Assembly (NCBI GenBank): GCA_965208735.1
Contig: CBDBPM010000002.1
Location: 733,145 to 797,144, forward strand
Reading direction: 5' to 3'
Source: Candidatus Poribacteria bacterium
GTDB lineage: Bacteria; Poribacteria; WGA-4E; WGA-3G
Length of the DNA stretch: 64,000 nucleotides
Made by a program: the position numbers and the translations under genes. The notes beneath the pieces are model-generated. The model did not search any database, was not told the origin of the DNA, and saw only the letters and a list, made by a program, of their open reading frames with translations. The stretch's first letter is position 1. The number at the start of each line of letters is the position of its first letter. Below are positions 37,937-56,608 of the stretch, piece after piece.

Positions 37937-38740
37937 ATGAAACCGAAATGTTTAAATTGGCGCGCTATTCAAACCTGTTTTATCTTTCTCTGTACTTTCA
38001 CCTTAATTATTCCGGTGGAGGCTCAAGTCGTCACGGACGGCTTAGTGAGTTACTACACATTTGACAAAAACGACACCGCCGGCGATACGGTTAAAGATAT
38101 TGTTGGCGGTAAGGATGGAACAATTATCGGTCAGCCGAAGTCCATCGAGGGGCATCTCGGTGACGCGCTCGATTTTGGTGGACAGCCGGATTGTGTGGAA
38201 TTGCCGAGCATTTTTAAAATCGGGGAGAATCCAGCGTCCTATGAGGCTTGGTTTTTGAAAACCCCTGATAGTCGCGTCGGTTGGCAATATATCCTGACAA
38301 ACAAAACGAATTTCTTTGATCATTTCTTTCGACTCGGCTTTAATGAGAATACCGGGCAACTTCGATACTATACCGAACAAGCCAACAACATCAAAAAAGC
38401 ATGGGTAACCGATGAGGATTACGCCGATGGCAAATGGCACCATGTGGTGGCGACCCGCGAAGACGATAGTGCAAAACTATATGTCGATAGCGTGCTCGTC
38501 AAAGAGGATGAGGCAATGTCCGGCGATATAGGCGGCGGTGAAACGAACTGGAACATCGCTCAAGATGGCAATACCGATGGGTACTTGATAGGCGCGGTGG
38601 ACGAAGTGCGCATCTATAAGAAGGTGCTGACACTGGAAGAGATTAAGCAGAACTTTGAGTCACAGGGCTTGGCAGTACAGCCCACCGGGAAGTTGAGTCT
38701 CACCTGGGGGCGGATTAAAGCCACACAATCTGATCGTTAG
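37937..38740 (+). CDS. Secreted LamG/concanavalin-A-like lectin-fold protein with conserved C-terminal KLSLTWGRIK tail
   Basis: 267 aa with RBS ggaggcg and a signal peptide. LamG-type signatures are present (LDFGGQPDCVELP, DGKWHHVVATRE..KLYVDSVLV, GYLIGAVDEVRIY). The C-terminus is VQPTGKLSLTWGRIKATQSDR. Confidence 0.6.
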   Translation: MKPKCLNWRAIQTCFIFLCTFTLIIPVEAQVVTDGLVSYYTFDKNDTAGDTVKDIVGGKDGTIIGQPKSIEGHLGDALDFGGQPDCVELPSIFKIGENPASYEAWFLKTPDSRVGWQYILTNKTNFFDHFFRLGFNENTGQLRYYTEQANNIKKAWVTDEDYADGKWHHVVATREDDSAKLYVDSVLVKEDEAMSGDIGGGETNWNIAQDGNTDGYLIGAVDEVRIYKKVLTLEEIKQNFESQGLAVQPTGKLSLTWGRIKATQSDR

Positions 38741-40036: not shown

Positions 40037-40855
40037 TCACTCCGGCCGCTTGCGGTGCTTGACGTCCAGTTCGCGAAGGAGTGCCAAAGTGTCCTCAAAC
40101 GACAGTTCACCCGTTGAAGCTGTATGTTCGAGGTAATCGCGCGTCTTATCGTTGAGCACACCATAAAAGGCACGCGCCTCAGGATCGGGATGGTCTCGCC
40201 AAAGTTCAACAGGTATGATCGAATCCTCGCTCAAGTACTGACGGTCCGGATGCCCGTAATAGACTTGCACCGTCTTCCGTTCTGCCTGAGTCGGACGGGT
40301 CGTAGCGGTGTGTAAAACACCGATGTTGAATAGCACGGCTGTCCCAGCGGGACCGTACAAATCGACAATGCCGCCACGTTCCAACTGCGCGTCTGTTTCG
40401 AGAATCTCTGCATCCACCGATTCCGGTGATAGGGAGAAACAGTGCGTCGTTTCATCAACATCGGTCAGATACAGCATCAACTGGACGAACCCGATACGCA
40501 ACGGATGTTCAAGCCAGTGCCTCGGGCCATCTCGATGCCAGCCGCGATTCAGTTCACCATCGTACGGTGCCATGTGCCGGATGCAGATTTCTGAAAAGCA
40601 AGGGGCATTGCCCATCAGTGTGTGTAGGCAATCCATGACGATCGGATGCCGAATCACAGTGTCGAATTCAGGTGAAGTCAGAAGTGCATCGCAATTCGCG
40701 GTCTGGTAATATCCAATACGATACCAGTGATCTTCAACTTCAGTGCGGTCCCGGTCAAAGAGATGAACAAAATGCGCAACCTCGGCATCGCTCAGAATCT
40801 TACCAAGTGAAATATAGCCATTTTCTTTAAAAAACGCATAATCTGCTGGCTTCAT
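40037..40855 (-). CDS. Phytanoyl-CoA dioxygenase (PhyH) family protein (third copy in window)
   Basis: 272 aa with WHRDG (the H-x-D ligands) and a downstream His (GVLHTA). Confidence 0.6.
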   Translation of the reverse strand: MKPADYAFFKENGYISLGKILSDAEVAHFVHLFDRDRTEVEDHWYRIGYYQTANCDALLTSPEFDTVIRHPIVMDCLHTLMGNAPCFSEICIRHMAPYDGELNRGWHRDGPRHWLEHPLRIGFVQLMLYLTDVDETTHCFSLSPESVDAEILETDAQLERGGIVDLYGPAGTAVLFNIGVLHTATTRPTQAERKTVQVYYGHPDRQYLSEDSIIPVELWRDHPDPEARAFYGVLNDKTRDYLEHTASTGELSFEDTLALLRELDVKHRKRPE

Positions 40856-42439: not shown

Positions 42440-43730
42440 TTCGCTCCACCCGCGGGCGTTTCCCTGTAGTCTCCTATACTACAGGCATATCGTCAGGTGA
42501 CGGCTATCCCCGCCCGCAAAATGTTGATCGCAGCGTTGATGTCTCTATCGTGGTCTGAACCACATTCGCGGCATATCCACTGCCTGTCGTTCAATGTTAG
42601 GTTTTCGTTATGGAAACCACAATCCGAACACGGCTTCGTTGTAGGTGTCCATTGTCCGACTTGTTTGAAACGACGCTTATGTTTTTGACACTTATATTCC
42701 AATATCTGAACAAACTGGTAGAAGGAGAGGTCAGAAACTTTACGCCCCCACAGGCGTTTCATGCCATCAAGGTTCAACGTCTCAAGGAAAATGCTATCAA
42801 ACTTTTTACAAAGTTTAGAGGCAAGTTGCCAATGAAAGTCTTTGCGTTGATTCGTGATTTTCCGATAAAGGCGTGCGATTGCTCTCACACAACGCCACCA
42901 GCCATTAGAACCTTTGACTTTACGAGAAAGTTCTTTATTGAGAGACCGAAGTTTGTTCAAGGTGTGTTTCAAGGGTTGTGGGTGTTGTATTTTCTCACCC
43001 GTGCTCAGTGTCAAATAAGCGTCTTTCATGCCGAAGTCTGCCCCAACGCTTTTACCTGTTGTCGGCAGCGGTTTGAAATCTGTATAGGTTGTCGTTATGC
43101 ACAGCCAATAAGTCCCACAGTTGTCGCGTTTGATGGTGATATAACTGATAGTTCCAGGTTTCCACTGGCGGTGTTTATGAAACGTATACGGCACTTTATC
43201 AAACTGCCATTTACGCGTCTTCGGATTCCATTTACGAAAAGTCAGCGTGATACGATTATTTTTCAGAGACCATCCCGATTCTCCGGGGTAGGTGATAGAC
43301 TTAAACTTGTGGCACTTTTTGATTTTCGGTCTGCCGCCAAGTTTTTTGAAAAATCTGTCGTATGCTTTATGAATCCGTTTAAGTTCCTGCTGGATCGCTT
43401 GAGACGGCAATGCTTTCCAATGCGGGTGCGTAGTATCTTTCAAAACTTTCACGTGGTCGCACATACCCTCAAAGTTGACGGACGGCAACCCGTCTTTATG
43501 GCGTTGACGCTGCCACTCATGGAAGTAGACATGCACCTGCCACATATCGTCAAGCAGATTACCAATGCGAATTATGTTAGATTGTTTACCCAATGGATAT
43601 TTATACGTTTTCATGGACTATCAAGTATCAAGTCTTTAACCCCTAACGAGTGCGTAGGTAGACACGTAACCTTGCGATTACGCTCGTTATGTCTGCCAAC
43701 TTGATACTACACTTATACTACATTTTCAAT
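42440..43730 (-). mobile_element. IS200/IS605-family insertion sequence of the TnpB-only (IS1341-like) type, ~1.3 kb
   Basis: A single tnpB ORF is flanked by subterminal imperfect hairpins: the RE-side ctgtagtctcctatactacag at 42464..42484 and the LE-side aacgagtgcgtaggtagacacgtaaccttgcgattacgctcgtt at 43644..43687. No Y1 tnpA is present. The ends are approximate. Confidence 0.7.
42493..43614 (-). CDS. tnpB: TnpB (IS605 OrfB) RNA-guided endonuclease-like transposon protein
   Basis: 373 aa with a RuvC-like core and the C-terminal zinc finger CSDCGFHNEN..WICRECGSDHDRDINAAINI, characteristic of TnpB. Confidence 0.8.
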   Translation of the reverse strand: MKTYKYPLGKQSNIIRIGNLLDDMWQVHVYFHEWQRQRHKDGLPSVNFEGMCDHVKVLKDTTHPHWKALPSQAIQQELKRIHKAYDRFFKKLGGRPKIKKCHKFKSITYPGESGWSLKNNRITLTFRKWNPKTRKWQFDKVPYTFHKHRQWKPGTISYITIKRDNCGTYWLCITTTYTDFKPLPTTGKSVGADFGMKDAYLTLSTGEKIQHPQPLKHTLNKLRSLNKELSRKVKGSNGWWRCVRAIARLYRKITNQRKDFHWQLASKLCKKFDSIFLETLNLDGMKRLWGRKVSDLSFYQFVQILEYKCQKHKRRFKQVGQWTPTTKPCSDCGFHNENLTLNDRQWICRECGSDHDRDINAAINILRAGIAVT

Positions 43731-43824: not shown

Positions 43825-44979
43825 TCAAAGTTTACTCTCCCACACAGCTTCTGTAACAACATCAGCAGATTTAGTACTAAATAGTGTCAACCCTCCCCAA
43901 TCCGATATTGCTTCATCTGAATCTTCAACATCTAAGGTTGAAATGTCTTTGACGCTCACAACACCATCCTGACGAGAGAAATAATAGGTTTTGAAAGTTT
44001 TTCCATCCAAGATTGTCTCTGTGAGATCATAGGAATAGGCATTTGCTTTCAAATCCAACAACTGTCTTAACCGTGCTGGTGCTTTTTTTGATTTAGCAAT
44101 GAGTCGAATTGCCCAGATGAGTTCTAAAATTTGGGCCGAATGCGTAGAAACAATAACTTTGTAGCCTCGCCTTAGAAGTTCTAAAAAAATAAGAAGCAGT
44201 GCTGAGATCGCTTGGGGATGTAACCCCATTTCCGGTTCCTCAATAATAACCCAGTCAATGCTATCTTTTTTCCGTACTTTCCCTGAAGGCATTAACCAAT
44301 ACAACCCCAATAGGAGCGGAGTGAATTCTCTCTGTCCAGTTGACCAGGTCATGAATGGGAGTTGAGTGCCTGCAACATCTAAGACAATACGTTTACGTAA
44401 TCCGGACCTATCCAACCTAATTTCAGCGTCTCCAAAGATGCTTTTTCCGATCGCGTCTCGGAGTGTTTTATTCATGCGACCCTCCTGCGGAAATATAGCC
44501 CCTGCACCTGACCCCAACCCTTTTTCCATCAACAACCGCAATTCCTCACTAAATTTCTTAACTACATACGGATCACTTGTCGAATAGTCTGTAAACGCGC
44601 GGGGCCACCCATCCTTAAGTGTCACAACCCGGTGTGCTGGCATCAGAAAGAGGGTTTCCTTTGTCTTTCGCCTCAATAACGCCCTTTGAGGCGTAAAATC
44701 TACTTTACTATCAACGGTGACTTTCGTCTCATCCTTGTCCCAGATTTTCTGCATCCCTTCACCCAAATAAAGGTACAAAAAATTCTCAGTATTTTTCTGC
44801 CAATCAAAACCGTGTTTTTTCAGCGTTTGCGTAATGTCGCCTGCATCTAAAATTAACTTCATGAGTTGGAGCAGAATGCTTTTTCCACTCGCTTGTTCCC
44901 CGACAAACACTGTTAGATCGCCAAAGGTGATGTCGGCTTCCGGAATTTGTCCGAGTGAAGTTAGTTTAAGATTTTTCAT
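43825..44979 (-). CDS. AAA_21/ABC-type ATPase (OLD/AbiEii/AriA/PtuA-like defense-associated ATPase family)
   Basis: 384 aa. Walker A is GEQASGKS, Walker B is DWVIIEEPEMGLHP and the H-loop is VIVSTHS. There is no fused nuclease domain. The gene is low-GC (~42%). Confidence 0.7.
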   Translation of the reverse strand: MKNLKLTSLGQIPEADITFGDLTVFVGEQASGKSILLQLMKLILDAGDITQTLKKHGFDWQKNTENFLYLYLGEGMQKIWDKDETKVTVDSKVDFTPQRALLRRKTKETLFLMPAHRVVTLKDGWPRAFTDYSTSDPYVVKKFSEELRLLMEKGLGSGAGAIFPQEGRMNKTLRDAIGKSIFGDAEIRLDRSGLRKRIVLDVAGTQLPFMTWSTGQREFTPLLLGLYWLMPSGKVRKKDSIDWVIIEEPEMGLHPQAISALLLIFLELLRRGYKVIVSTHSAQILELIWAIRLIAKSKKAPARLRQLLDLKANAYSYDLTETILDGKTFKTYYFSRQDGVVSVKDISTLDVEDSDEAISDWGGLTLFSTKSADVVTEAVWESKL

Positions 44980-45058: not shown

Positions 45059-45688
45059 TCAGATTTTTTTATAGACAAAATCCAGCCACTTGTCTTGTGG
45101 CGGTATAATTTCGGGTTTCGGCGAAAGCGGTGTCCAGTACGGCTTGAAAATGTGCCCCAGATCACTCTTCAATTCCCATGCATCCGCTGTTTCCTCTTGT
45201 GTGCTTAACAGAAAAAAATGCCTCGTTTTCTGTGCACTTAGGTTTTTATTTGGTACCCATCCCGAAATGTTAGCGTCAATGCATATGGGCTTGTGGAATT
45301 TGTCATATTCATATTCAATGTACGAAATGTGTGTGAAATCCTCCTGTGTGGAATGGTAATCAACAGTAAGTCCTTTGGGCAGCTTTCGCTTGTAGGGAAT
45401 TGCATTTAAGTTGGGTTCAATATAAACCCGCGTCGTTTCCGCTATGATTCTTTGGTTATTTTCCAATTCATTTTCAAAACAACCCAGATAGTTTTCAATT
45501 TCTACAAGTTGTAAGCCTGTCTCTTCATAAACTTCCCTCTTTACAGCAGTTTCAATATCCTCACCACTCTCAACAGTGCCTGCAGGAATCTGGACACCCG
45601 CAGTGGGATGTTTGAAAACAAGCAATTCTTTAACACCACACCTCTCACGTACTATAAAGGCAGTAACTTTTTGGATAATTTCATTCAC
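45059..45688 (-). CDS. NUDIX hydrolase with C-terminal extension
   Basis: 209 aa. The Nudix box is GTVESGEDIETAVKREVYEETGL (Gx5Ex7REUxEExGU). Confidence 0.7.
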   Translation of the reverse strand: MNEIIQKVTAFIVRERCGVKELLVFKHPTAGVQIPAGTVESGEDIETAVKREVYEETGLQLVEIENYLGCFENELENNQRIIAETTRVYIEPNLNAIPYKRKLPKGLTVDYHSTQEDFTHISYIEYEYDKFHKPICIDANISGWVPNKNLSAQKTRHFFLLSTQEETADAWELKSDLGHIFKPYWTPLSPKPEIIPPQDKWLDFVYKKI

Positions 45689-45700
45689 TCTGATTTCTCC

Positions 45701-46915
45701 TCAGTCTCCACTAACAAAGGCACGCCCGGGTTTTTCCTCAGCACGGAATACAGCGAGGTTACGTCCGTTCACGTCTTTGATGAGCCAGATATGTCCCGCA
45801 AACGTGTGCTGGTTCACAAAAGTATCAACAGCAATCTTACCATAGAATTTCTCTTCACCGCTACCATCTACCCAATAATAGGCGATCTCGGTTTCCTTGC
45901 CGCCATTCACGAAAATGATCGCGGTTTCGGTGTCGCTGCTGCCTGACCTTAGATTTGGAAGTAGACTCGGATCGTGTCCCTTCAAGTCTACCCATTTGCC
46001 ACCACCATCGCTGTCTGGGTTTTTTAATTGCTGATGGAATTCCGTCAACTCTATTAACTCACGGGGCCATTCAAACTTCGGAGACTTTTCAGGATCAAAC
46101 CCTTGGAGGTGTGAGAGAGGCAAACGAGTTACCGCCTGTGTGTACCGCCAGTCTTTATCGCCATATACCTCAGTCAGCAGTGCTGCAAGTGCCGGATCGT
46201 ATTCCTTCAATTTGTCGCGGGTATCAACATGGTTATGTTGGTCGTCGTTTGCGCGGTTCGTGTCAAACCAAGACTGCGTACCTTCAGCCCAATACTCCGC
46301 TCTGTTCGTAATAGCGTAGGTATTTTCCCACAACCCTTTTTCAACCGCAGCATCATATAGTATCTTAAGACGGTCATCGAAACTCGGATCCACTGTATTC
46401 AATCCCATCTGATGAATCGCATGTGCGAATTCGTGAACCAGAATGTTCTCAGTCGAATACGGGTCGCCTGTGTAATTAAGAAGGTTTTCCTCACCACAAC
46501 TGACAGCGGGTCTTGATGGCGTGGAACCCAAACCGCGTGCGCGTCGGTCCCAATAGTAGTCCGGTTGCAGATCGCTATGTTCGGGAATCTGTGTTGTCAG
46601 TTCGTTATACGCCATCACAGCAAAACGCACGTTATTTTTTGCAAGTGCCTGTAACACATCCTGACGATGTCCAACCATCTGTCGAATAAGCCATGCTGCC
46701 TCTTTCACGGCATAAGGATTCACCTTCGCTGATGCGACAACGGGCAATCCTTCCACATCAATCCACTGCACATAAAACGGATCCAAGTCAAAAGTTTTAC
46801 GAACATCATCCGGTAGAGGTATAGGTTCGGAAATATTGACGTTCTGCGCCATTGCAGTTAGTTGGATTGAGGAAAATAGTATGTAGATCGCGAAAATAGC
46901 AGTTAAATAGAGCAT
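45701..46915 (-). CDS. Secreted HExxH zinc metallopeptidase fused to a C-terminal VHL-beta-domain-like module
   Basis: 404 aa with a signal peptide (MLYLTAIFAIYILFSSIQLTAMA). The catalytic motif is VHEFAHAIHQ, with a downstream Glu/Tyr-rich segment (AEYWAEGTQSWF). The last ~70 aa (IIFVNGGKETEIAYYWVDGSGEEKFYGKIAVDTFVNQHTFAGHIWLIKDVNGRNLAVF) align with the human VHL beta-domain (IFCN..WLNFDGEPQPY..HSYRGHLWLFRD..GLLV), including the hydroxyproline-pocket Trp/Tyr/His/Trp positions. Confidence 0.6.
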   Translation of the reverse strand: MLYLTAIFAIYILFSSIQLTAMAQNVNISEPIPLPDDVRKTFDLDPFYVQWIDVEGLPVVASAKVNPYAVKEAAWLIRQMVGHRQDVLQALAKNNVRFAVMAYNELTTQIPEHSDLQPDYYWDRRARGLGSTPSRPAVSCGEENLLNYTGDPYSTENILVHEFAHAIHQMGLNTVDPSFDDRLKILYDAAVEKGLWENTYAITNRAEYWAEGTQSWFDTNRANDDQHNHVDTRDKLKEYDPALAALLTEVYGDKDWRYTQAVTRLPLSHLQGFDPEKSPKFEWPRELIELTEFHQQLKNPDSDGGGKWVDLKGHDPSLLPNLRSGSSDTETAIIFVNGGKETEIAYYWVDGSGEEKFYGKIAVDTFVNQHTFAGHIWLIKDVNGRNLAVFRAEEKPGRAFVSGD

Positions 46916-46946: not shown

Positions 46947-47924
46947 TTATTTTGATTCTCGAAATAGAAGCATCTGAACAGATTCCTGGTTGATTGGATT
47001 TAAGGTGTCTCCCTTTTCGGAAATGTAGGTGCTGATGCAACGTGCAATGTACTCTGCCTGTTTCACGGGTACAGCATTCCCAATCATCTGCTCCAAATTG
47101 GTTTTCGATCCAGTGAAACGAAAGCCTTTTGGAAAGGTCTGGAGATAACTTCGTTCTAAAGTTGTGAGCGGACGCACTTTTTCTGAAATTGGAGCAGTAT
47201 CCTTTGGATGTATTTTATACGTTTTGGGAATTGGACGGTTAACCCCTCTCACTGTTGGACTTGGTTCATCAATGCTAAAGACTGCACGGCGACTATAATT
47301 GCGTGGATGTCGATAATAGTGGGCAACGTCGAGACTATCCCCCAAGTAATCACGCACACTCATCGGTTTGGTAGTCAGATTGTTATCCAGATAACTCGCG
47401 AGAGATCTGCTATCCACAGAGATAGATAGTCCCAATTCACCAACAAGAAAAAGCCGTTTCCGTCTTTGTGGAACACCACACTGATTTGCGTCTAAAATTC
47501 GCTGTGTTAGTGAATATCCTGCGCTTCTTAAAATTTCACCAGCACTACGATATCGCTGACTTTTCACAGTTCTATCCACATTTTCCATGACAAACCACTT
47601 CGGTTTTGTCTGTGCGACAATCTGTGCGAAACTCACGGTCAGATCCGCTCTTCCTAAATTTTCGTCCCGTTTACCGGCATGCGAAAAATCTTGACACGGA
47701 GGTCCACCAATAATCATATCAAATTGATATGCGTTTAATATTTCTAAACTTTCTTGCCAATTGCCGAGATCTATTTTGTGTATGCTATGCCCAAAATTAG
47801 CACGATAGACATCAATAGCCGGTTCCCAATTATCAAAAGCGGCTACTGCTTCAAAGCCAGCATTTTGGAATCCGAGTGTCATACCACCACACCCGGCAAA
47901 GAGATCAATGAATTTCATAGACAT
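46947..47924 (-). CDS. dcm: DNA (cytosine-5)-methyltransferase
   Basis: 325 aa. Motif I is FIDLFAGCGGMTLGF and motif IV is GGPPCQDFSHAGKR (the PCQ catalytic Cys). The ENV motif is present. Confidence 0.85.
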   Translation of the reverse strand: MSMKFIDLFAGCGGMTLGFQNAGFEAVAAFDNWEPAIDVYRANFGHSIHKIDLGNWQESLEILNAYQFDMIIGGPPCQDFSHAGKRDENLGRADLTVSFAQIVAQTKPKWFVMENVDRTVKSQRYRSAGEILRSAGYSLTQRILDANQCGVPQRRKRLFLVGELGLSISVDSRSLASYLDNNLTTKPMSVRDYLGDSLDVAHYYRHPRNYSRRAVFSIDEPSPTVRGVNRPIPKTYKIHPKDTAPISEKVRPLTTLERSYLQTFPKGFRFTGSKTNLEQMIGNAVPVKQAEYIARCISTYISEKGDTLNPINQESVQMLLFRESK

Positions 47925-47939
47925 TTGTGTTTTTACCTT

Positions 47940-49025
47940 TTACATGAAAAGTTCAGGAGAATTAGCCAGAATCGCATCAAATCGTCTTTCTGGACTAAGC
48001 ATCTTTTCGCCCTGCCCTAAGATAATGTTTTTGATTTCAGTTTTTTTGATTCTTGGATGTGTGAGTTCTACACAGGACATATAACGATGAGTCTTTCTTC
48101 CACTCAAGGCAAAGGCTTTGTCTGTTTGTCTCGTAAATCCAACACTAACGGTCTGTGGGTCAATTTTTCCATCTGTGGCAAAGTCAGAAAGCATTTTCAT
48201 GACCCACAAAACTGACCGTTTTGCTCGTGAGAATTCTTTAGAACGCCCTTGCTCAACTGTATCTAATAGCAGCTTCGCAAAAGCGAACGTACTCCAGACA
48301 AAAACATCCAAACAATTTTCATGAAGTTGAGCAGATTTCCCAACAGTCTTCCAAATAGGCTGTATCACTAATGGAATCTGATTGTCCATTTCCGCGACTA
48401 ACAAATGCTTGATAATTTGGATAATATCGGGTATTCTTTCCAACATGCTATTTTCCGAACGCCAGTCAAAGTTACTTTGAAAAATCGGGCGTAGAGCCTC
48501 AGAAAGTTCGTTTTGACGTTCAGCGTACCGCTTAGCAATTTCGAGTGTTAAATGGATAATCGTATTCGGACGCACTACAAGTTCACAACTGTACTCTTCT
48601 TCAGGAAAGTTGCAAGTCGAATTATCAGGCAAAGCCGTTAACTTAATCTCTAACGCCCGTAACCAAGGATTTTCAGAGTCAGAATTATCCATTACCACTA
48701 AATCAATACGAGGTAAAGTTCCTTTGACAAATTGCTGATTTTGTCCATAAGTATACTCAAAAGCAAAGTAAATATCTTCAGAGTCATACGCATGTCCAAA
48801 TATAGAGTTTACATCAATCTTCTCAGGAACGATATTCCAATTCTGACCTAAAGCCAAGTAAACAGGAGCGATATTTTGGCTTTGCATATAACATAATAAG
48901 GCGATAGGGAAACAGTTATTAAAGCTGTTCTTTCCCCATGCTTTTGCTTGACTGAAGTCTTTGTTTGTGTTCGATTGGTTCAACCCAAACAAAGCAGGCG
49001 TATTACTTGTTGATGTGAATTTCAT
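47940..49025 (-). CDS. Putative Type II restriction endonuclease (PD-(D/E)xK) partnered with the C5-MTase
   Basis: 361 aa. It lies immediately upstream of the MTase and is co-directional with it (15-nt gap). The candidate catalytic motif is PRIDLVVMD..LRALEIKL (D...E-x-K). No other family match is visible by eye. Confidence 0.5.
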   Translation of the reverse strand: MKFTSTSNTPALFGLNQSNTNKDFSQAKAWGKNSFNNCFPIALLCYMQSQNIAPVYLALGQNWNIVPEKIDVNSIFGHAYDSEDIYFAFEYTYGQNQQFVKGTLPRIDLVVMDNSDSENPWLRALEIKLTALPDNSTCNFPEEEYSCELVVRPNTIIHLTLEIAKRYAERQNELSEALRPIFQSNFDWRSENSMLERIPDIIQIIKHLLVAEMDNQIPLVIQPIWKTVGKSAQLHENCLDVFVWSTFAFAKLLLDTVEQGRSKEFSRAKRSVLWVMKMLSDFATDGKIDPQTVSVGFTRQTDKAFALSGRKTHRYMSCVELTHPRIKKTEIKNIILGQGEKMLSPERRFDAILANSPELFM

Positions 49026-49085: not shown

Positions 49086-49790
49086 TCATCCATTATCAGA
49101 ATCTCTCCTATAAGTCTTTGATTTTGCGTGGCGGGATTTGCTTCTTAAACTCCATACACTGCCAATAAAATTGCTGTCAATAAGTTGTTTAAAAATTCCA
49201 TGGCGTGCCGATGGTTTGATTTCAAACCTATCTGTTTCGGATGAAAACGGATAAATGTCGGCTTCACCCGCCAGCACAGCGAAAAATTTACCGCGGTTAT
49301 TCGGAAGAAAAATGGGGCCTTCCCATTCCAAATATTCAACTACTGGTGGTGTGCTCGGGATAGACATTCTCGCGTCAAGGAGAACTTCCCTCCTGTCCTG
49401 TAGTTTGATAGAAGCAGGAAGTTTGTTTTCGAGTCGGATGTCACCTTGAAAATATGGGGTCCGAAAGAATACCCTTTCCGAGAAAGCCAAGAGTCTGGAC
49501 GAGTTAAATGCGTATGGCAAATAGTAGCCGTCCAGACTCGCTCCGTTTTCATCAAGGCAAACGCCAACAGCGATAACAAACTCCCTAAACTTGAATCCCC
49601 TCCACTTCGTATCTATCGCACTGAGTAGGAGAATTGCCTTATCCGCTTCGTGGTATGGGAAAAGACCCTCCTCGCGTAATACGGCTTCCCAGAACGATAA
49701 ATCCGCTGTGCCGTGGAGGGTTACCTCTTTGACATTATAAAGATCCGCGACGTATTGGATAGAGGTGTTTGCAACTGTACTTTTAGGCAT
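49086..49790 (-). CDS. Hypothetical protein
   Basis: The start ATG at 49790 overlaps the GH32 stop by 8 nt (MPKSTVANTS...). 234 aa. No recognisable motif. Confidence 0.4.
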   Translation of the reverse strand: MPKSTVANTSIQYVADLYNVKEVTLHGTADLSFWEAVLREEGLFPYHEADKAILLLSAIDTKWRGFKFREFVIAVGVCLDENGASLDGYYLPYAFNSSRLLAFSERVFFRTPYFQGDIRLENKLPASIKLQDRREVLLDARMSIPSTPPVVEYLEWEGPIFLPNNRGKFFAVLAGEADIYPFSSETDRFEIKPSARHGIFKQLIDSNFIGSVWSLRSKSRHAKSKTYRRDSDNG

Positions 49791-51342
49791 AGATGTCCTG
49801 CATCTGCCAAGCATCTAAGGATTTGAGTTCACAGGATTGTCCTTGTGAGCGCAACGACACACCGACACTCTCCGCTTTGTCAGGATAGACCCGCATCGCC
49901 ACACACTGCTTCCCGTTAGCGAAGACCTCTACCACACTCTTGTCAACGAATACGCGTAATTTGAGGGTTTCGCCTTGTGCAACAGAGATCGCTCCAGTTT
50001 CAGGGGCGCGTGAAAGGACATCCGGGGCAACTGACGCATACGACGAATCAATCGTTAGCAGGCTATCGCGCACGTTAACATCGGAATTTAGGTTGCGCAT
50101 GCCGCGTTCTCTAAAGAACGCAATGCGGGTGAATTCCTCTTTCTGCGGTGAACGGAGCACATTCAATTCAACCATCGGTGCGGACTTCGTATCGATTTCG
50201 AGTTCAAGCTCCATCGCATTGCCATTTATGCCTTCCAGTACAACCTCTTCGTTCGCGGGGAGTGTCATCGCATTGACATGCTGATGTTCATACCGCAACG
50301 ATTCAATATCACCAGCAGGCTCAATTCCGATCTCATCTCTGGAAAGGAGCGTCAAGCGGCGCGGCAATGTCATGATCTGATTCCAACCCTTAGTAGGTTT
50401 CGCCGGGTTCATATTATAGATAACGATCAGTCCACCGTTGCCATCAGGTGTTGCAGAAGGCGCGTGGACACCCGCAGGCGACGCAGCCCCGAAATTGTTT
50501 TTCGCACCCGCCGTCACGACGAACTTGTCGCGTTCAGTGTCATAATCACCAAGTAGATACTGTCCACCGCTCATGTGACTGAAGAAAAGGAGCATGTGCC
50601 TGTCGCCGATGGGCCAGAAATACGGACACGCACCATCGTCGCCGACCAATGTGAACATATCGTCTTCAACGAACGGGTGTAGATAGACCCAATTCGCTAA
50701 ATCCGCTGAACGGAGCAGAAAGTTGGCGCGAATTGGCTTACCGCCGGGACCGTGCGGGAGTGTGCCACCGGAAAGCGAATAATACATATCGTCTTTCTTC
50801 CAGATACACGGATCAAAGACGCGGTAGACCGGGGTCGTACCGTCGGCGTGCTGCGACGGGATGACCGCTTTGCCGGACACCTTCTCCCAATTCAGGAGCA
50901 ACGGATCACTCGACACTGCCACCATATTGCCGACAACCGTGCCATGATACATCGCTATCACACGGTCTTCTTCTACAAGCGTTGCACCGGAAAAACAGCA
51001 TCTTTCCGGATTCGGGTAAATTGCATACGGCAAATCGCGCCAATGGATGAGGTCATCACTGATTGCGTGCCCCCAATGCTGTCGTGTATCTTCAGGTGGA
51101 TACGCCTGATAAAAAAGATGCCAGCGTCCCTGCCAGAAACAGAGACCATTCGGATCATTAAGCATCGCTTCGGGGTTTATATAGTGATAAATCGGACGGT
51201 GCGGATCGCTTTCATACGTTTTCCGATAAGCGTTAAGCCGTTGCATCAGCGGATTCGTTTCTAACTCTGCCTCTTGCGCTTCCAGCGTTTCCGCAAACGT
51301 GTAGTACGGCACACGCGAGGTATAATCTTCGTTTGCCATCAT
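49783..51342 (-). CDS. Glycoside hydrolase family 32 (beta-fructofuranosidase / levanase-like)
   Basis: 519 aa. The GH32 blocks MLNDPNGLCFWQGRWHLFYQ, WGHAISDDLIHW and the RDP/EC-region equivalents are present, and a beta-sandwich C-domain follows. Confidence 0.75.
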   Translation of the reverse strand: MMANEDYTSRVPYYTFAETLEAQEAELETNPLMQRLNAYRKTYESDPHRPIYHYINPEAMLNDPNGLCFWQGRWHLFYQAYPPEDTRQHWGHAISDDLIHWRDLPYAIYPNPERCCFSGATLVEEDRVIAMYHGTVVGNMVAVSSDPLLLNWEKVSGKAVIPSQHADGTTPVYRVFDPCIWKKDDMYYSLSGGTLPHGPGGKPIRANFLLRSADLANWVYLHPFVEDDMFTLVGDDGACPYFWPIGDRHMLLFFSHMSGGQYLLGDYDTERDKFVVTAGAKNNFGAASPAGVHAPSATPDGNGGLIVIYNMNPAKPTKGWNQIMTLPRRLTLLSRDEIGIEPAGDIESLRYEHQHVNAMTLPANEEVVLEGINGNAMELELEIDTKSAPMVELNVLRSPQKEEFTRIAFFRERGMRNLNSDVNVRDSLLTIDSSYASVAPDVLSRAPETGAISVAQGETLKLRVFVDKSVVEVFANGKQCVAMRVYPDKAESVGVSLRSQGQSCELKSLDAWQMQDIYA

Positions 51343-52532: not shown

Positions 52533-52610
52533 GTTAGTTTGGTTTCAATTAGAACAACACACTACACCAAAACGTATTTTAATGGTAAATTCAACCTTTG
52601 GGAGGTAAAA

Positions 52611-53399
52611 ATGAAATCCATTATAACTCGATTAGCGATCATCACTATCAGTCTGAGTCTGATCTTCACAGTACATACTTATGCGGAGATCGATTTTAGC
52701 ACCGCAAGAGGCATTTGGCTACTTGACGAAGGTGACGGCACTGTTATCAACGATATGTCTGGAAACCAGAATCACGGTGAACTTCAGGGCGGAGAATGGG
52801 TTGACGGACCGGACGGACCCGCCCTCAGTCTAAACGGGCAAGATGACCGCGTTATCATCGCAGACTCCGATACTATGTATCTCGAAGAGGCATGGACGAT
52901 CACTGCTTGGGCTTTTGTGAATACAACCGAGAACGGTTTTGGACATATTCTCGGCAAAAGACCCGCATCTGGAACCGTAGCCAATTACGCATTCAGAACA
53001 AGCGGCGCTGGTACCGGCTGGGAGGCTTACTTCGCACGAGACGGTTGGAAAGGGGCTTGGAATCAAGGAACCGTAAAGAAAGGTGAATGGTTGTATATGA
53101 CCGCAACTTATGACGCAAAGGATACCATTAAGATCTACGAAAATGGAGTCGAAATCGGGTCTGTTGGCGGGATGGGTAAACCGGGACCTCAGAATGACAC
53201 TGAGGTCAACATCGGCGGCTGGACCAATAACACCTCAGAGACACTTGACGGTATGCTCTATGAGGTCGCAATCTTTGCTTCCGTACTGGAAGAAGACGAT
53301 ATAAACGATCTGATGGAGAAGGGACTCGTAACGCTAATGCCCGTTGAGCCTTCTGACAAACTTGCCACTACATGGGCAAGTATCAAATCTCGGCAATAG
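52611..53399 (+). CDS. Secreted LamG/concanavalin-A-like protein with conserved C-terminal KLATTWASIK tail
   Basis: The start is trimmed to ATG 52611 (RBS gggagg). The signal peptide is MKSIITRLAIITISLSLIFTVHTYA. LamG-like blocks are present (LSLNGQDDRVIIAD, WLYMTATYDAKDTIKIYENGVEIG). The C-terminus is VEPSDKLATTWASIKSRQ. Confidence 0.6.
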   Translation: MKSIITRLAIITISLSLIFTVHTYAEIDFSTARGIWLLDEGDGTVINDMSGNQNHGELQGGEWVDGPDGPALSLNGQDDRVIIADSDTMYLEEAWTITAWAFVNTTENGFGHILGKRPASGTVANYAFRTSGAGTGWEAYFARDGWKGAWNQGTVKKGEWLYMTATYDAKDTIKIYENGVEIGSVGGMGKPGPQNDTEVNIGGWTNNTSETLDGMLYEVAIFASVLEEDDINDLMEKGLVTLMPVEPSDKLATTWASIKSRQ

Positions 53400-53606: not shown

Positions 53607-54884
53607 ATGACACAACTGCCTAACGTCCTCCTTATCCTCGCTGACGACCACGGTTATGGCGATATTTCGGCACACAACGGTCCCTCAATCCAGACACCAA
53701 ACATTGACAGAATTGCTGAACAGGGAACACGGTTCACCAGATTTTACGCGAACTCCTCTGTCTGTTCGCCAAGCCGTGCATCTCTCATGACCGGACGCTA
53801 TCCCGATAGAGCCGGGGTGCCGGGTGTGATTCGCACGCATCCAGAAAACAGTTGGGGGTACCTTCGACAGGATGCCGTCACGCTCCCTTCAGCCTTGAAA
53901 CAGAAAGACTATCGTACTGCACTCATAGGTAAGTGGCACCTTGGACTCGAACCGGAGAATCACCCTTGCAAACGCGGGTTTGACCATTTTCACGGTTTCC
54001 TCGGCGATATGATGGACGACTATTACACACACCGCAGACACGATATAAACTACATGCAGCACGGTTTTGATACCATTGATCCGAGGGGACACGCCACAGA
54101 TCTCTTTACAGAATGGAGCATGGACTTCATTCGCGCACAAGCACAGTCGTTTGAACCTTTTTTCCTCTATCTCGCCTACAACGCGCCCCATACGCCAATC
54201 CAACCGCCTGATGAATGGATCGCGCGAGTCCAAGAACGCGAACCCGATATTTCACCACAACGCGCAAAATACATCGCGCTCGTCGAGCACATGGACGCTG
54301 GTATTGGACGCGTACTTGATACGCTTGAGGACACCGATCAACTGTCCAATACGCTCGTTATCTACACATCTGACAACGGCGGTGCAGTGAATGTCGGGGC
54401 TCACAACGGTCCGCTACGCGGGCAAAAAGGGCAGATGTACGAAGGCGGCATCCGAGTCCCTACCTGCGCGATGTGGCCTGGATACATCCAAAACGGATAT
54501 GTTACAGATCAAGTGGCGTTGCTCATGGACCTGTTCCCGACAATATGTGAAGTGGCTGGCGCATCAATTCCCGAAGGCATCGAAGGACGCTCAATTTGGC
54601 AGAGGCTTCAAGGCGAACAGCAGGACTTCTCGGAACGTATACTCTATTGGTTGCGGAGAGAAGGGGGGCAACAGTTTCTCGGACAGTGCCAACATGCCAT
54701 CCGACGTGGAGACACCAAATTGTTGCACAACAGCCCCTTTGAACCCTTGGAACTCTACAATCTGTCAAACGATCCATTGGAAACGACGGACAACGCGCAG
54801 ACAGAGTCGGCACTCTTCAGAGAAATGCGCCAACTATTTCAAGCAGAAACACAGAAGGCTGGAAGTGTGCCTTGGCAACGATGA
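53607..54884 (+). CDS. Sulfatase (formylglycine-dependent arylsulfatase family)
   Basis: 425 aa. The N-terminus NVLLILADDHGYGD, the FGly motif CSPSRASLMTGRY, and GKWHLG are all present. Confidence 0.85.
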   Translation: MTQLPNVLLILADDHGYGDISAHNGPSIQTPNIDRIAEQGTRFTRFYANSSVCSPSRASLMTGRYPDRAGVPGVIRTHPENSWGYLRQDAVTLPSALKQKDYRTALIGKWHLGLEPENHPCKRGFDHFHGFLGDMMDDYYTHRRHDINYMQHGFDTIDPRGHATDLFTEWSMDFIRAQAQSFEPFFLYLAYNAPHTPIQPPDEWIARVQEREPDISPQRAKYIALVEHMDAGIGRVLDTLEDTDQLSNTLVIYTSDNGGAVNVGAHNGPLRGQKGQMYEGGIRVPTCAMWPGYIQNGYVTDQVALLMDLFPTICEVAGASIPEGIEGRSIWQRLQGEQQDFSERILYWLRREGGQQFLGQCQHAIRRGDTKLLHNSPFEPLELYNLSNDPLETTDNAQTESALFREMRQLFQAETQKAGSVPWQR

Positions 54885-56350: not shown

Positions 56351-56608
56351 CCTTTCATTTCAATGTTGACAGACTACTAGTATCCTCGCCCTTGTGTTGG
56401 TGTATAAGTAATTACGGGTTTTACTATAAAATGTGTGATTGCAGAGGAAAATTAGCCATCAACTGTTTTGACAGCGTAATCTTTATCTGATATAATAGTT
56501 CAGCATAAATACCCAATACGTATTATTTTGAGAAATCATTTTAGGGAATTCATATTCTGCACAAAACTTCCATCAGCAGATTCAAACTATTAAAGGGATT
56601 TATTGATA

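Follow-up and report, generated by a model that had tools for sequence, protein, structure and literature searches.

A 404-aa protein encoded in a 64,000-nt stretch of Candidatus Poribacteria DNA (the window) combines a predicted exported zinc metalloprotease with a C-terminal domain that is almost certainly homologous to the beta domain of the human von Hippel-Lindau protein (pVHL). All six residues that form the hydroxyproline (Hyp) site of pVHL are kept in this domain, with a single change from Ser to Thr (T371). As a tentative explanation of the whole, which we hold with a little less than even confidence, we propose an exported zinc endopeptidase with a pVHL-type exosite docking Hyp or a similar proline-type residue. 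The protein belongs to a large unnamed family, and in the window member the full pVHL hydroxyproline site is thus found fused to a protease. No description of a VHL-protease fusion was found in the literature searched (Poribacteria together with VHL, bacterial VHL beta or VHL-like domains, and PF01847), and the authors who reported VHL beta domains in prokaryotes describe their role as unknown (PMC7736814; PMC9002001).

The gene and its two domains

The initial annotation, made from the letters of the window, had described an ORF at 45701..46915; it does exist on the minus strand, codes for 404 aa, and contains IIFVN, YYWVDGSGEEKFY, HTFAGHIWLIKD and NLAVF, all of which had been quoted for the VHL comparison. 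The interval then given for the VHL-type domain, 45704..45930, corresponds to residues ~329-404, and the domain is better set at 322-401 (Table 1). With a GC content of 0.476 versus a window mean of 0.479, the gene looks native. An exact look-up of the 404-aa sequence found no record and an NCBIfam search with it gave zero matches; more than 5,500 homologues were retrieved at E<=0.001, with PF01847 pre-annotated in 115 of 120 among the matches listed. Sequences resembling promoters or terminators occurred around the gene at no higher frequency than after shuffling.

Table 1. Features of the protease gene and its product, in window coordinates
Feature	Residues	Position	Strand	Basis
Whole gene: 404-aa metalloprotease, predicted exported, with C-terminal VHL-beta-like domain	1-404	45701..46915	(-)	ORF list; stop codon 45701..45703
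Predicted Sec signal peptide, MLYLTAIFAIYILFSSIQLTAMA	1-23	46847..46915	(-)	h-region and A-M-A before Q24, by inspection
Catalytic domain, putative minimal gluzincin	27-298	46022..46837	(-)	Weak Pfam M90/ATLF matches; profile vs PDB; pLDDT mostly >90
HEFAH zinc/catalytic motif (H161, E162, H165)	161-165	46421..46435	(-)	Aligned to lethal factor HEFGH
TYAITNRAEYWAE, with Y200 and E207	199-211	46283..46321	(-)	HMMER alignment to SYGRTNEAEFFAE of lethal factor
Linker between protease and VHL-like domain, NPDSDGGGKWVDLKGHDPSLLPN	299-321	45953..46021	(-)	Translation; pLDDT 79-85 (lower)
VHL-beta-like seven-strand beta sandwich	322-401	45713..45952	(-)	Pfam PF01847, pVHL profile match, Foldseek
W348 = pVHL Trp88, pocket wall	348	45872..45874	(-)	Alignment; invariant in 71/71 Poribacteria copies
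Y358 = pVHL Tyr98 (H-bonds the Hyp carbonyl in pVHL)	358	45842..45844	(-)	Alignment
HTFAGHIW: H370, T371, H375, W377 = pVHL His110, Ser111, His115, Trp117	370-377	45785..45808	(-)	Alignment

The PF01847 profile was recovered on the whole protein with 24.6 bits (E=2.6e-5, residues 322-384) and on the isolated domain with 27.2 bits, above its curated gathering threshold of 21 bits. In a phmmer search of the PDB, human pVHL appeared at E~7e-4 with the alignment that had been described initially, and a profile built from 21 bacterial domains matched pVHL at E=5e-8 (36 bits), the next unrelated match being at E=0.08. The AlphaFold model computed from a diverse alignment reached a pLDDT of 92.1 and a pTM of 0.82; an earlier run on 78 close homologues (77-91% identity) had stopped at pLDDT 54 and left the protease part without a model, yet gave the same VHL match in Foldseek. 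For both models the best 50 matches listed were pVHL chains alone (probability 1.00, 24-26% identity), superposing over ~80-93 columns (86-93 with the pLDDT-92 model) with an rmsd of mostly 1.3-2.7 A. The seven strands of the model span residues 330-337, 344-349, 355-361, 366-372, 376-381, 386-391 and 397-401. The claim that the C-terminal tail aligns with the human VHL beta domain is therefore borne out by the PF01847 score, by the profile match to pVHL and by the superposed fold. The pVHL alpha domain with its BC box (the Elongin C site) is absent, as the protein stops at residue 404, right after the last strand, and the PDB alignments to pVHL end inside the beta domain, indicating that we are dealing with a beta-domain homologue, and not with a pVHL orthologue.

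N-terminal to the linker lies a putative gluzincin, complete but not catalogued, which bears a distant resemblance to anthrax lethal factor, Pro-Pro endopeptidase and MtfA. In alignments A1, A3 and A4, H161, H165 and E207 are invariant, E162 is at least 90% conserved, and Y200 is either invariant or at least 90% conserved; we take Y200 and E207 to be the counterparts of lethal factor Tyr728 and of its third zinc ligand, Glu735. The protein thus has the HExxH, the downstream Tyr and the Glu of an E-F/Y-F/W-A-E motif that together mark M34/ATLF proteases. A profile of the catalytic domain, when compared with the PDB, matched lethal factor at E=1.2e-3 and Pro-Pro endopeptidase/Zmp1 at E~0.02 (range to 0.03). 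The Pfam ATLF profile (PF07737) gave 18.5-20 bits, under the gathering threshold of 27.4 bits, and was matched weakly by 12 of 23 family members (best E=5e-4), so that we do not file the protein as M34 and regard it as a distant relative only. Likewise, M90/MtfA (PF06167) gave 19-21 bits, under its gathering threshold of 26.2 bits, and 15 of the 23 matched it weakly around the stretch from HExxH to Glu. The M9 and U32 catalytic profiles of bacterial collagenases in Pfam gave no match, even at E<=10, and none of the PADLOC models matched the protease. With the zinc-binding and catalytic positions conserved to this degree, the domain is very probably an active metalloprotease.

The fusion of the VHL-type tail to a signal-peptide-bearing HExxH zinc protease, as initially annotated, also agrees with the HEFAH motif and with the signal-peptide-like N-terminus. 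The hydrophobic N-terminal segment (MLYLTAIFAIYILFSSIQLTAMA, followed by Q) ends in an A-x-A motif, has a Kyte-Doolittle mean of 1.9-2.1 across the first windows of the protein, and forms a helix in the AlphaFold model (residues 2-24); the N-terminus is conserved in the alignment consensus of the orthologues. Since it has no Cys, the protein is not a lipoprotein, and since it has no basic n-region, a membrane anchor remains an alternative to a signal peptide. Behind the predicted signal peptide lies a Pro-rich stretch, NIPEPVPPP in the clade and NISEPIPLP in the window protein. LpxB and LpxK are encoded in the window, as in an LPS-making organism, and no outer-membrane export tag was seen in the 404-aa form, which has a Sec-type signal only; with such a signal alone, a protein of an LPS-making organism would stay in the periplasm, and the protease may thus be periplasmic. 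Additional domains in its relatives, namely dockerin, FlgD_ig/Por_Secre_tail (T9SS-type tails), LRR and Big_1, point to life at the cell surface or outside the cell.

Conservation of the hydroxyproline site

In pVHL, the Hyp site consists of Trp88, Tyr98, His110, Ser111, His115 and Trp117, with the hydroxyl bound by Ser111 and His115 (PMC9528729). Alignments by HMMER and MAFFT pair human W88/Y98/H110/S111/H115/W117 with W348/Y358/H370/T371/H375/W377 of the window protein, in agreement with the earlier statement that the Trp, Tyr, His and Trp of the hydroxyproline pocket are preserved. Ten of the 80 columns of the domain are invariant in 71 Poribacteria copies, and four of the pocket residues (W348, T371, H375 and W377) are among them. 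The Y358 column is occupied by Tyr in 47/71 copies and by Arg in 21/71, and we infer that the Arg-bearing copies are paralogues of ~60% identity. Trp117 of pVHL is also part of the structural aromatic core (PMC3688787), and its conservation is therefore partly structural.

In the wider family, sampled as 86 domains from clusters at 50% identity, the pocket varies far more: an equivalent of Trp88 is kept in 40 domains and one of His115 in 29. The two tend to be retained or lost together, with both present in 28 domains, neither in 45, and 13 discordant cases, in a statistic that ignores phylogenetic relatedness. The 23 domains with the full pocket extend down to ~40% identity and include tandem domains, namely those of P0138 and P0188 as well as two of the three in P0168. 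Across the wider family, the best-conserved positions are the equivalents of Trp117, Asn78 and Gly114, which are at least partly structural. The pVHL sub-pockets for residues flanking Hyp are not conserved, as N67, R69, F91, I109 and R107 all differ. Given the loss of His115 and Trp88 from most of the wider family, Hyp reading cannot be the general role of protease-linked VHL domains.

Family spread and gene neighbourhood

The family comprises about 3,900 clusters at 50% identity, and proteins of this architecture are also encoded in MAGs with the labels Planctomycetota, Phycisphaerae and Verrucomicrobia, which are not known to us to be host-associated. The bacterium carrying the window does look host-associated, as had been supposed, its gene neighbours being syntenic with those of Candidatus Poribacteria MAGs. 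About 10 Poribacteria orthologues lack the VHL-like domain and end cleanly at ~residue 285-295, one locus keeps the VHL-like domain only, and relatives carry 2-3 tandem VHL copies or, besides the partner domains mentioned above, Ank, LRR, WD40 and LDL-receptor repeats; dockerin, T9SS-type tails and tandem VHL domains are frequent among them. Taken together, the domain-less orthologues, the lone domain, the tandem copies and the extra partners indicate that the VHL-like domain is an accessory module, and it probably serves to bind a ligand. When the domain was used by itself as a query for homologues, 16 short fragments were retrieved, in which other architectures were not visible. One of these, P0134, has the source name “dipeptidyl-peptidase-4” but proved to be a 101-aa VHL-only remnant at the syntenic locus, and not a fusion to DPP4.

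Near the protease gene, the window contains genes for GH32, GH95, a sulfatase, Laminin_G_3 and a UxuA-like protein, and it also codes for a 1,278-aa WD40+LRR protein. NUDIX, AAA_21 and GH32 genes recur at many related Poribacteria loci, which we read as general genome synteny, and no functionally linked neighbour gene emerged from these loci. None of the 26 annotated window proteins belongs to the prolyl 4-hydroxylase family; a PhyH-type dioxygenase encoded 5 kb from the protease gene is not classed by Pfam among the prolyl hydroxylases. The protease gene adjoins an R-M system and a PDC-M56A ATPase. Its membership in this adjacent defence island was considered and rejected in view of its native GC, its signal peptide, the extracellular partner domains of its relatives, and its presence at loci with or without the R-M pair.

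Possible ligands and comparison with known systems

It is known that pVHL docks Hyp564 of HIF. In the explanation that we prefer, the VHL-like domain would act as the substrate-recognition (exosite) module of an exported zinc endopeptidase, its pocket accommodating hydroxyproline, or a proline-type residue much like it, within an extended peptide, so that Hyp- or Pro-rich extracellular proteins would be held close to the active site. Candidate substrates would be, in Poribacteria, sponge collagen/spongin or its fragments and, in the planctomycete and verrucomicrobial relatives, debris of collagen or the hydroxyproline-rich glycoproteins (HRGPs) of algae. Besides the homology to pVHL, the retained pocket, the catalytic residues and the traits of an accessory module described above, this proposal draws support from the Pro-Pro endopeptidases, proline-specific enzymes that are among the nearest solved proteases, and from the host matrix, in which hydroxyproline is present in sponge spongin/collagen (PMC5867623). 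Targeting of Hyp or collagen is weakened by the occurrence of the fusion in non-poribacterial MAGs, by the possible periplasmic location, by the domain-less orthologues and by the variation of the pocket; moreover, the VHL domain of a retron type X protein is predicted to be cytoplasmic, where hydroxyproline is not expected. Hydroxyproline itself is a possible ligand, for which we would claim somewhat less than for the proposal as a whole. It is more doubtful that the pVHL-type Hyp pocket has a use beyond animal oxygen sensing and that a large family of bacterial metalloproteases employs it extracellularly as a reader of prolyl hydroxylation, targeting collagen, spongin or algal HRGPs, and sponge collagen in particular is a rather unlikely natural substrate.

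An exosite for unmodified proline-rich or other extended peptides, perhaps operating in the periplasm on bacterial surface proteins or imported oligopeptides, has a modest chance of being correct. The PPEPs, which are the nearest solved proteases, cut between unmodified prolines, and the Pro-rich motif behind the predicted signal peptide (NIPEPVPPP; NISEPIPLP in the window), the Sec-type signal without further export tags, and the presence of the family in Planctomycetota and Verrucomicrobia MAGs would all be in line with such a role. However, the residues corresponding to those that bind the Hyp hydroxyl, Ser/Thr371 and His375, would not be needed for plain proline, and yet they are invariant in Poribacteria, with His375 co-varying with the pocket-wall Trp.

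Aromatic-plus-polar pockets are typical of CBMs, and the pocket lined by Trp, Tyr and His could accordingly be that of a CBM-like sugar binder, making the enzyme a glycoprotein- or proteoglycan-directed protease comparable to the CBM-bearing mucinase-type peptidases. Tandem copies in relatives and pocket residues that diversify over the family, as CBM specificities do, would agree with this. The glycan-degrading genes nearby (GH32, GH95, sulfatase, Laminin_G_3, UxuA-like) would do so as well, but they are merely syntenic across Poribacteria and not specifically linked to the protease gene. Since the sole significant sequence match and all 50 listed fold matches are to pVHL, and to no CBM, and since the exact pVHL residue set is retained, including the His/Ser(Thr) pair, we consider sugar binding less likely still.

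It is improbable, in our opinion, that the domain binds no ligand and is an appendage through which the protease is folded, stabilised, autoinhibited or anchored. The pTM of 0.82, which suggests a fixed two-domain arrangement, the ability of about 10 orthologues to manage without the domain, and the at least partly structural nature of the Trp117, Asn78 and Gly114 positions would be compatible with an appendage, which would nevertheless leave the invariance of the surface-pocket residues His375 and Thr371, kept or lost together with Trp348, hard to explain; in addition, the intact pockets in tandem repeats suggest that binding is multivalent. Finally, sponge symbionts are rich in eukaryote-like domains, exemplified by the WD40+LRR protein of the window and by the Ank, LRR, WD40 and LDL-receptor repeats of relatives, but recent acquisition from the animal host of a pVHL mimic acting in host cells (HIF capture or ubiquitin-ligase hijack) is hardly credible, given the missing alpha domain/BC box for Elongin C, the mere 24-26% identity to pVHL, the spread of the architecture over Planctomycetota, Phycisphaerae and Verrucomicrobia MAGs and about 3,900 clusters, the native GC, and the fusion to a protease that has a Sec signal, no signal for translocation into the host having been seen.

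If the pocket does read Hyp, it would to our knowledge be the first bacterial reader of hydroxyproline, and would bear on the origin of the pVHL recognition module. Such an extracellular family would amount to an unrecognised class of collagen- or HRGP-degrading enzymes, could supply small stable Hyp-binding reagents, and might include targets of existing VHL ligands. It would also imply matrix-directed proteases in sponge symbionts, which is relevant to a survey of sponge-associated MAGs that identified no collagenase genes (PMC8163846). Should its ligand be a different one, the family would still stand as a large and uncharacterised set of exported proteases from marine PVC-type bacteria. 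In either case, experiments could draw their controls from the variants that exist naturally without the VHL domain or with tandem copies of it.

Comparison with the human pVHL beta domain (PF01847; PDB 1LM8, 1LQB, 4AJY) shows the same fold (~90 residues at an rmsd of 1.3-2 A), significant sequence homology, and the same six site residues except for the Ser-to-Thr change. Unlike the cytosolic pVHL, the bacterial protein is predicted to be exported and is fused to a protease; without an alpha domain/BC box it would have no role as an Elongin-C/Cullin-2 adaptor, and the flanking sub-pockets used in reading HIF are not conserved. The same Pfam domain is present in the retron type X-associated membrane protein, together with an IHF-like DNA-binding domain (PMC7736814), and in the hypothetical protein EMK97_00595 of Litorilituus (PMC9002001), but neither contains a protease. 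PPEP-1/Zmp1, PPEP-2 and anthrax lethal factor (MEROPS M34) share with the present protein HEFxH, Tyr and E(F/Y)(F/W)AE in the same order and spacing, although the similarity is marginal, and the catalytic domain is larger here (~270 aa), with a conserved extension at 255-298. M34 enzymes are secreted bacterial endopeptidases, proline-directed in the case of PPEPs, and we know of none with a VHL-like domain. The likeness to MtfA/peptidase M90 is a weak profile match around HExxH-to-Glu only, which stays under the curated cut-off; MtfA itself is an aminopeptidase of the cytoplasm that binds a regulator, whereas the present protein has a signal-peptide-like N-terminus and relatives with extracellular-type partner domains. 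The closest parallel in design is offered by the M9 collagenases ColG/ColH with their collagen-binding domains and by the CBM-bearing mucinase-type peptidases, in which a secreted zinc protease is followed by one or more C-terminal beta-sandwich binding modules, sometimes in tandem. The logic of the present fusion is the same, tandem VHL copies included, but there is no sequence relationship to clostridial collagenases, and the module comes from another fold family and would recognise one modified residue, not the triple helix of collagen.

Domains of the window protein

The initial annotation, made from the sequence alone, had proposed that one ORF of the window joins a secreted HExxH metalloprotease to a C-terminal domain resembling the beta domain of human von Hippel-Lindau protein (pVHL). 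The strings that it quoted are all present in the C-terminal part of the 404-aa translation, its alignment to human pVHL was reproduced by phmmer against PDB sequences with the window protein as query (E~7e-4), and the profile search that it had suggested recovered the Pfam VHL beta family, PF01847, on residues 322-384 of the whole protein at 24.6 bits (E=2.6e-5), above the curated cut-off of 21 bits; taken alone, the domain scored 27.2 bits. In the reciprocal test, a profile of 21 diverse bacterial VHL-like domains retrieved pVHL at E=5e-8, with all other matches at E>=0.08. Since Pfam, phmmer and the reciprocal profile all lead to VHL or pVHL, the domain is, judged by sequence comparison, real and well beyond chance.

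A first AlphaFold model, for which the alignment held 78 near relatives, was of low quality (pLDDT 54), and a second, from an alignment mixing near and far relatives, reached pLDDT 92.1 and pTM 0.82, with seven beta strands between residues 330 and 401. The predicted fold, which the annotation had also put forward as a check, matches pVHL: with both models, pVHL chains alone appeared among the top 50 Foldseek PDB matches listed, and the second model aligned over 86-93 columns with an rmsd of mostly 1.3-2.7 Å, 24-26% identity and probability 1.00. The window protein ends directly after the beta sandwich and, because the alpha domain and BC box are absent from its 404 aa, the domain is a homologue of the pVHL beta domain, not a pVHL orthologue.

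The metalloprotease was likewise found where expected, N-terminal of the VHL-like domain, with HEFAH at residues 161-165. Against the PDB, a profile built on the catalytic domains of 23 diverse family members retrieved anthrax lethal factor at E=1.2e-3 and the Pro-Pro endopeptidases PPEP-1/Zmp1 at E~0.02. Lethal factor HEFGH is aligned to HEFAH, and its SYGRTNEAEFFAE to TYAITNRAEYWAE of the window protein, so that Y200 corresponds to the catalytic Tyr of lethal factor and E207 to its third zinc ligand. H161, H165 and E207 are invariant in all three alignments of the family, in which conservation of E162 and Y200 is 90% or higher. Because this catalytic set aligns with lethal factor, Pfam matches are sub-threshold (M90 in 15/23 and ATLF in 12/23 family members) and an NCBIfam search of the window protein matched no family, the catalytic domain is a gluzincin, complete yet uncatalogued, distantly related to M34 and M90 and belonging to neither.

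Putative hydroxyproline pocket and family distribution

The hydroxyproline (Hyp) site of pVHL comprises Trp88, Tyr98, His110, Ser111, His115 and Trp117, with Ser111 and His115 contacting the Hyp hydroxyl and Tyr98 its carbonyl (PMC9528729). W348, Y358, H370, T371, H375 and W377 of the window protein align with these positions in that order, and the Trp, Tyr, His and Trp columns initially reported as preserved are indeed kept. Across 71 Poribacteria copies, W348, T371, H375 and W377 are four of the 10 invariant columns among the 80 of the domain; the Y358 column holds Tyr in 47 and Arg in 21 copies, the latter probably paralogues. In 86 wider-family domains sampled from clusters at <=50% identity, equivalents of Asn78, Gly114, Leu118 and Trp117 are widely conserved; Trp117 of pVHL belongs to a structural aromatic core (PMC3688787). 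The Trp88 equivalent occurs in 40 and that of His115 in 29 of these domains, and the two are retained or missing as a pair, with both present in 28, neither in 45 and 13 discordant, in a count that ignores phylogeny. Of the 86 domains, 23 retain the full W-[YFW]-[ST]-H-W set, among them domains of proteins with tandem repeats and of relatives that are ~40% identical. We read the pocket as probably functional and maintained in the clade of the window gene, and re-purposed elsewhere in the family. The bacterial domains do not keep the pVHL residues that read either side of the hydroxyproline in the HIF peptide, as expected if the ligand lies in a different sequence context.

Homologues form a very large family, with more than 5,500 hits at 90% clustering; at 50% identity and E<=0.001 they fall into 3,914 clusters, 805 of these below 1e-30; the source names found are “hypothetical protein”. 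The VHL-like domain is matched in 88 of the 150 top representatives, nearly always immediately C-terminal to the protease domain; four of the representatives (P0138, P0168, P0188 and P0243, from outside the window) carry one protease domain followed by two or three VHL-like domains, with the W-Y/F-S/T-H-W pocket complete in most repeats. In one-genome-per-species collections, close relatives are nearly all Candidatus Poribacteria, with the orthologue at 75-91% and paralogues at ~57-64% identity. About 10 Poribacteria species have a cleanly ending, VHL-less protease at the same locus (L041, L048, L052, L054, L061, L064, L065, L066, L068, L072); in the related locus L058 a frameshift places the two parts in separate frames, and in L081 (4001-4306) the VHL part forms a 101-aa gene on its own, named “dipeptidyl-peptidase-4” in one source. 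At greater distance, the family includes proteins encoded in Planctomycetota, Phycisphaerae and Verrucomicrobia MAGs. Homologues at 45-50% identity also lie on contigs labelled as Akkermansia MAGs (L077, L079, L080), one in a 751-aa ORF.

Probable export and genomic neighbourhood

By inspection, the protein begins with a strongly hydrophobic segment, MLYLTAIFAIYILFSSIQLTAMA|Q, which ends in A-x-A and is conserved in orthologues but has no basic n-region; the signal peptide initially claimed is thus graded as a probable Sec signal. LpxB and LpxK are encoded in the window and the source organism makes LPS, so that the 404-aa form could be periplasmic, unless exported further. Larger relatives carry dockerin (26/49), FlgD_ig (31/49) or Por_Secre_tail (15/49) domains, as well as LRR, Big_1, LDL-receptor, WD40, DM9 and ankyrin repeats, which suggests that the module acts at the cell surface or outside the cell. 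A proline-rich motif at residues 27-35 reads NIPEPVPPP in the Poribacteria-like clade consensus and is not conserved in planctomycete-type relatives; that it is a pro-segment or substrate mimic is pure speculation.

Features of the protease-VHL gene and its surroundings
Feature	Position	Strand	Remarks
Protease-VHL gene	45701..46915	-	ORF, 404 aa
Proline-rich motif NISEPIPLP	46811..46837	-	After predicted signal-peptide cleavage site
HindVP-type restriction endonuclease and C5 cytosine methyltransferase	46947..49025	-	Directly upstream of protease; Pfam E=6e-128 (HindVP)
NUDIX hydrolase	45059..45688	-	Starts 12 nt downstream of protease gene; in 53 related loci
AAA_21/AAA_15 ATPase	43825..44979	-	PADLOC candidate defence protein PDC-M56A, full length, E=1.9e-157
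TnpB/IS605 OrfB with Cas12f-like TNB domain	42493..43614	-	In only 6 related loci
Long antisense ORF over TnpB	42610..43704	+	Probably spurious
Laminin_G_3 (x2)/PhyH/GH32/sulfatase/GH95 set	37937..38740, 40037..40855, 49783..51342, 52539..53399, 53607..54884, 56603..58906
WD40 beta-propeller and LRR protein	22949..26785	+	1,278 aa, “eukaryote-like”

Synteny between the window and Poribacteria MAGs extends across nine or more neighbouring genes, and the GC content of the protease-VHL gene is native to it. The gene is flanked by the restriction-methyltransferase pair, which looks like an inserted R-M island (GC 0.39-0.43 versus a window mean of 0.48; present in 19-23 of 80 related Poribacteria loci), and by the NUDIX gene, for which related loci revealed no functional link to the protease beyond synteny. 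Beyond NUDIX follow the AAA_21 ATPase, kept in place in 36 related loci and with no partner gene identified, and then TnpB. Farther genes encode two Laminin_G_3 proteins, a PhyH-type 2OG dioxygenase, GH32, a sulfatase, a GH95 fucosidase and GFO/IDH/MocA, and the surroundings are rich in glycan degradation genes. Larger relatives of the protease also have the WD40 and LRR repeat types of the 1,278-aa protein joined to their protease-VHL module. No neighbour tracked the protease beyond general synteny in the related loci, no prolyl hydroxylase was found among the annotated window proteins, and the protease had no defence-system match.

Putative ligand and relation to known systems

The architecture is that of a predicted exported zinc protease bearing a detachable, sometimes tandem, beta sandwich with a conserved pocket, a layout common among enzymes that pair a catalytic domain with a module for substrate binding. 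As the pocket matches that of pVHL residue for residue, the most economical putative ligand is 4-hydroxyproline, which it would bind on an extended peptide. Alternatively, the pocket might bind unmodified Pro-rich peptides or glycans, or the domain might be purely structural or regulatory; host mimicry is an unlikely further reading, since the alpha domain is missing, identity to pVHL is low and the family is widespread in bacteria. As regards hydroxyproline, sponge spongin and collagen contain it (PMC5867623), and a large survey identified no collagenase genes in sponge-associated MAGs (PMC8163846), so that matrix proteases may have gone unrecognised there. Candidate substrates of the relatives in planctomycetes and Verrucomicrobia are collagen debris or the hydroxyproline-rich glycoproteins of algae.

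PF01847 is already marked on family proteins by automatic Pfam annotation, and bacterial VHL beta domains have been mentioned in other contexts (PMC7736814, where the function is stated to be unknown; PMC9002001); neither a protease-VHL fusion nor a VHL domain from Poribacteria was described in the literature searched. What we rate as new here is a predicted secreted protease whose targeting module would be a VHL-type putative hydroxyproline reader: secreted proteases with a targeting module are of a known kind, from which the window protein differs by the VHL type of that module.
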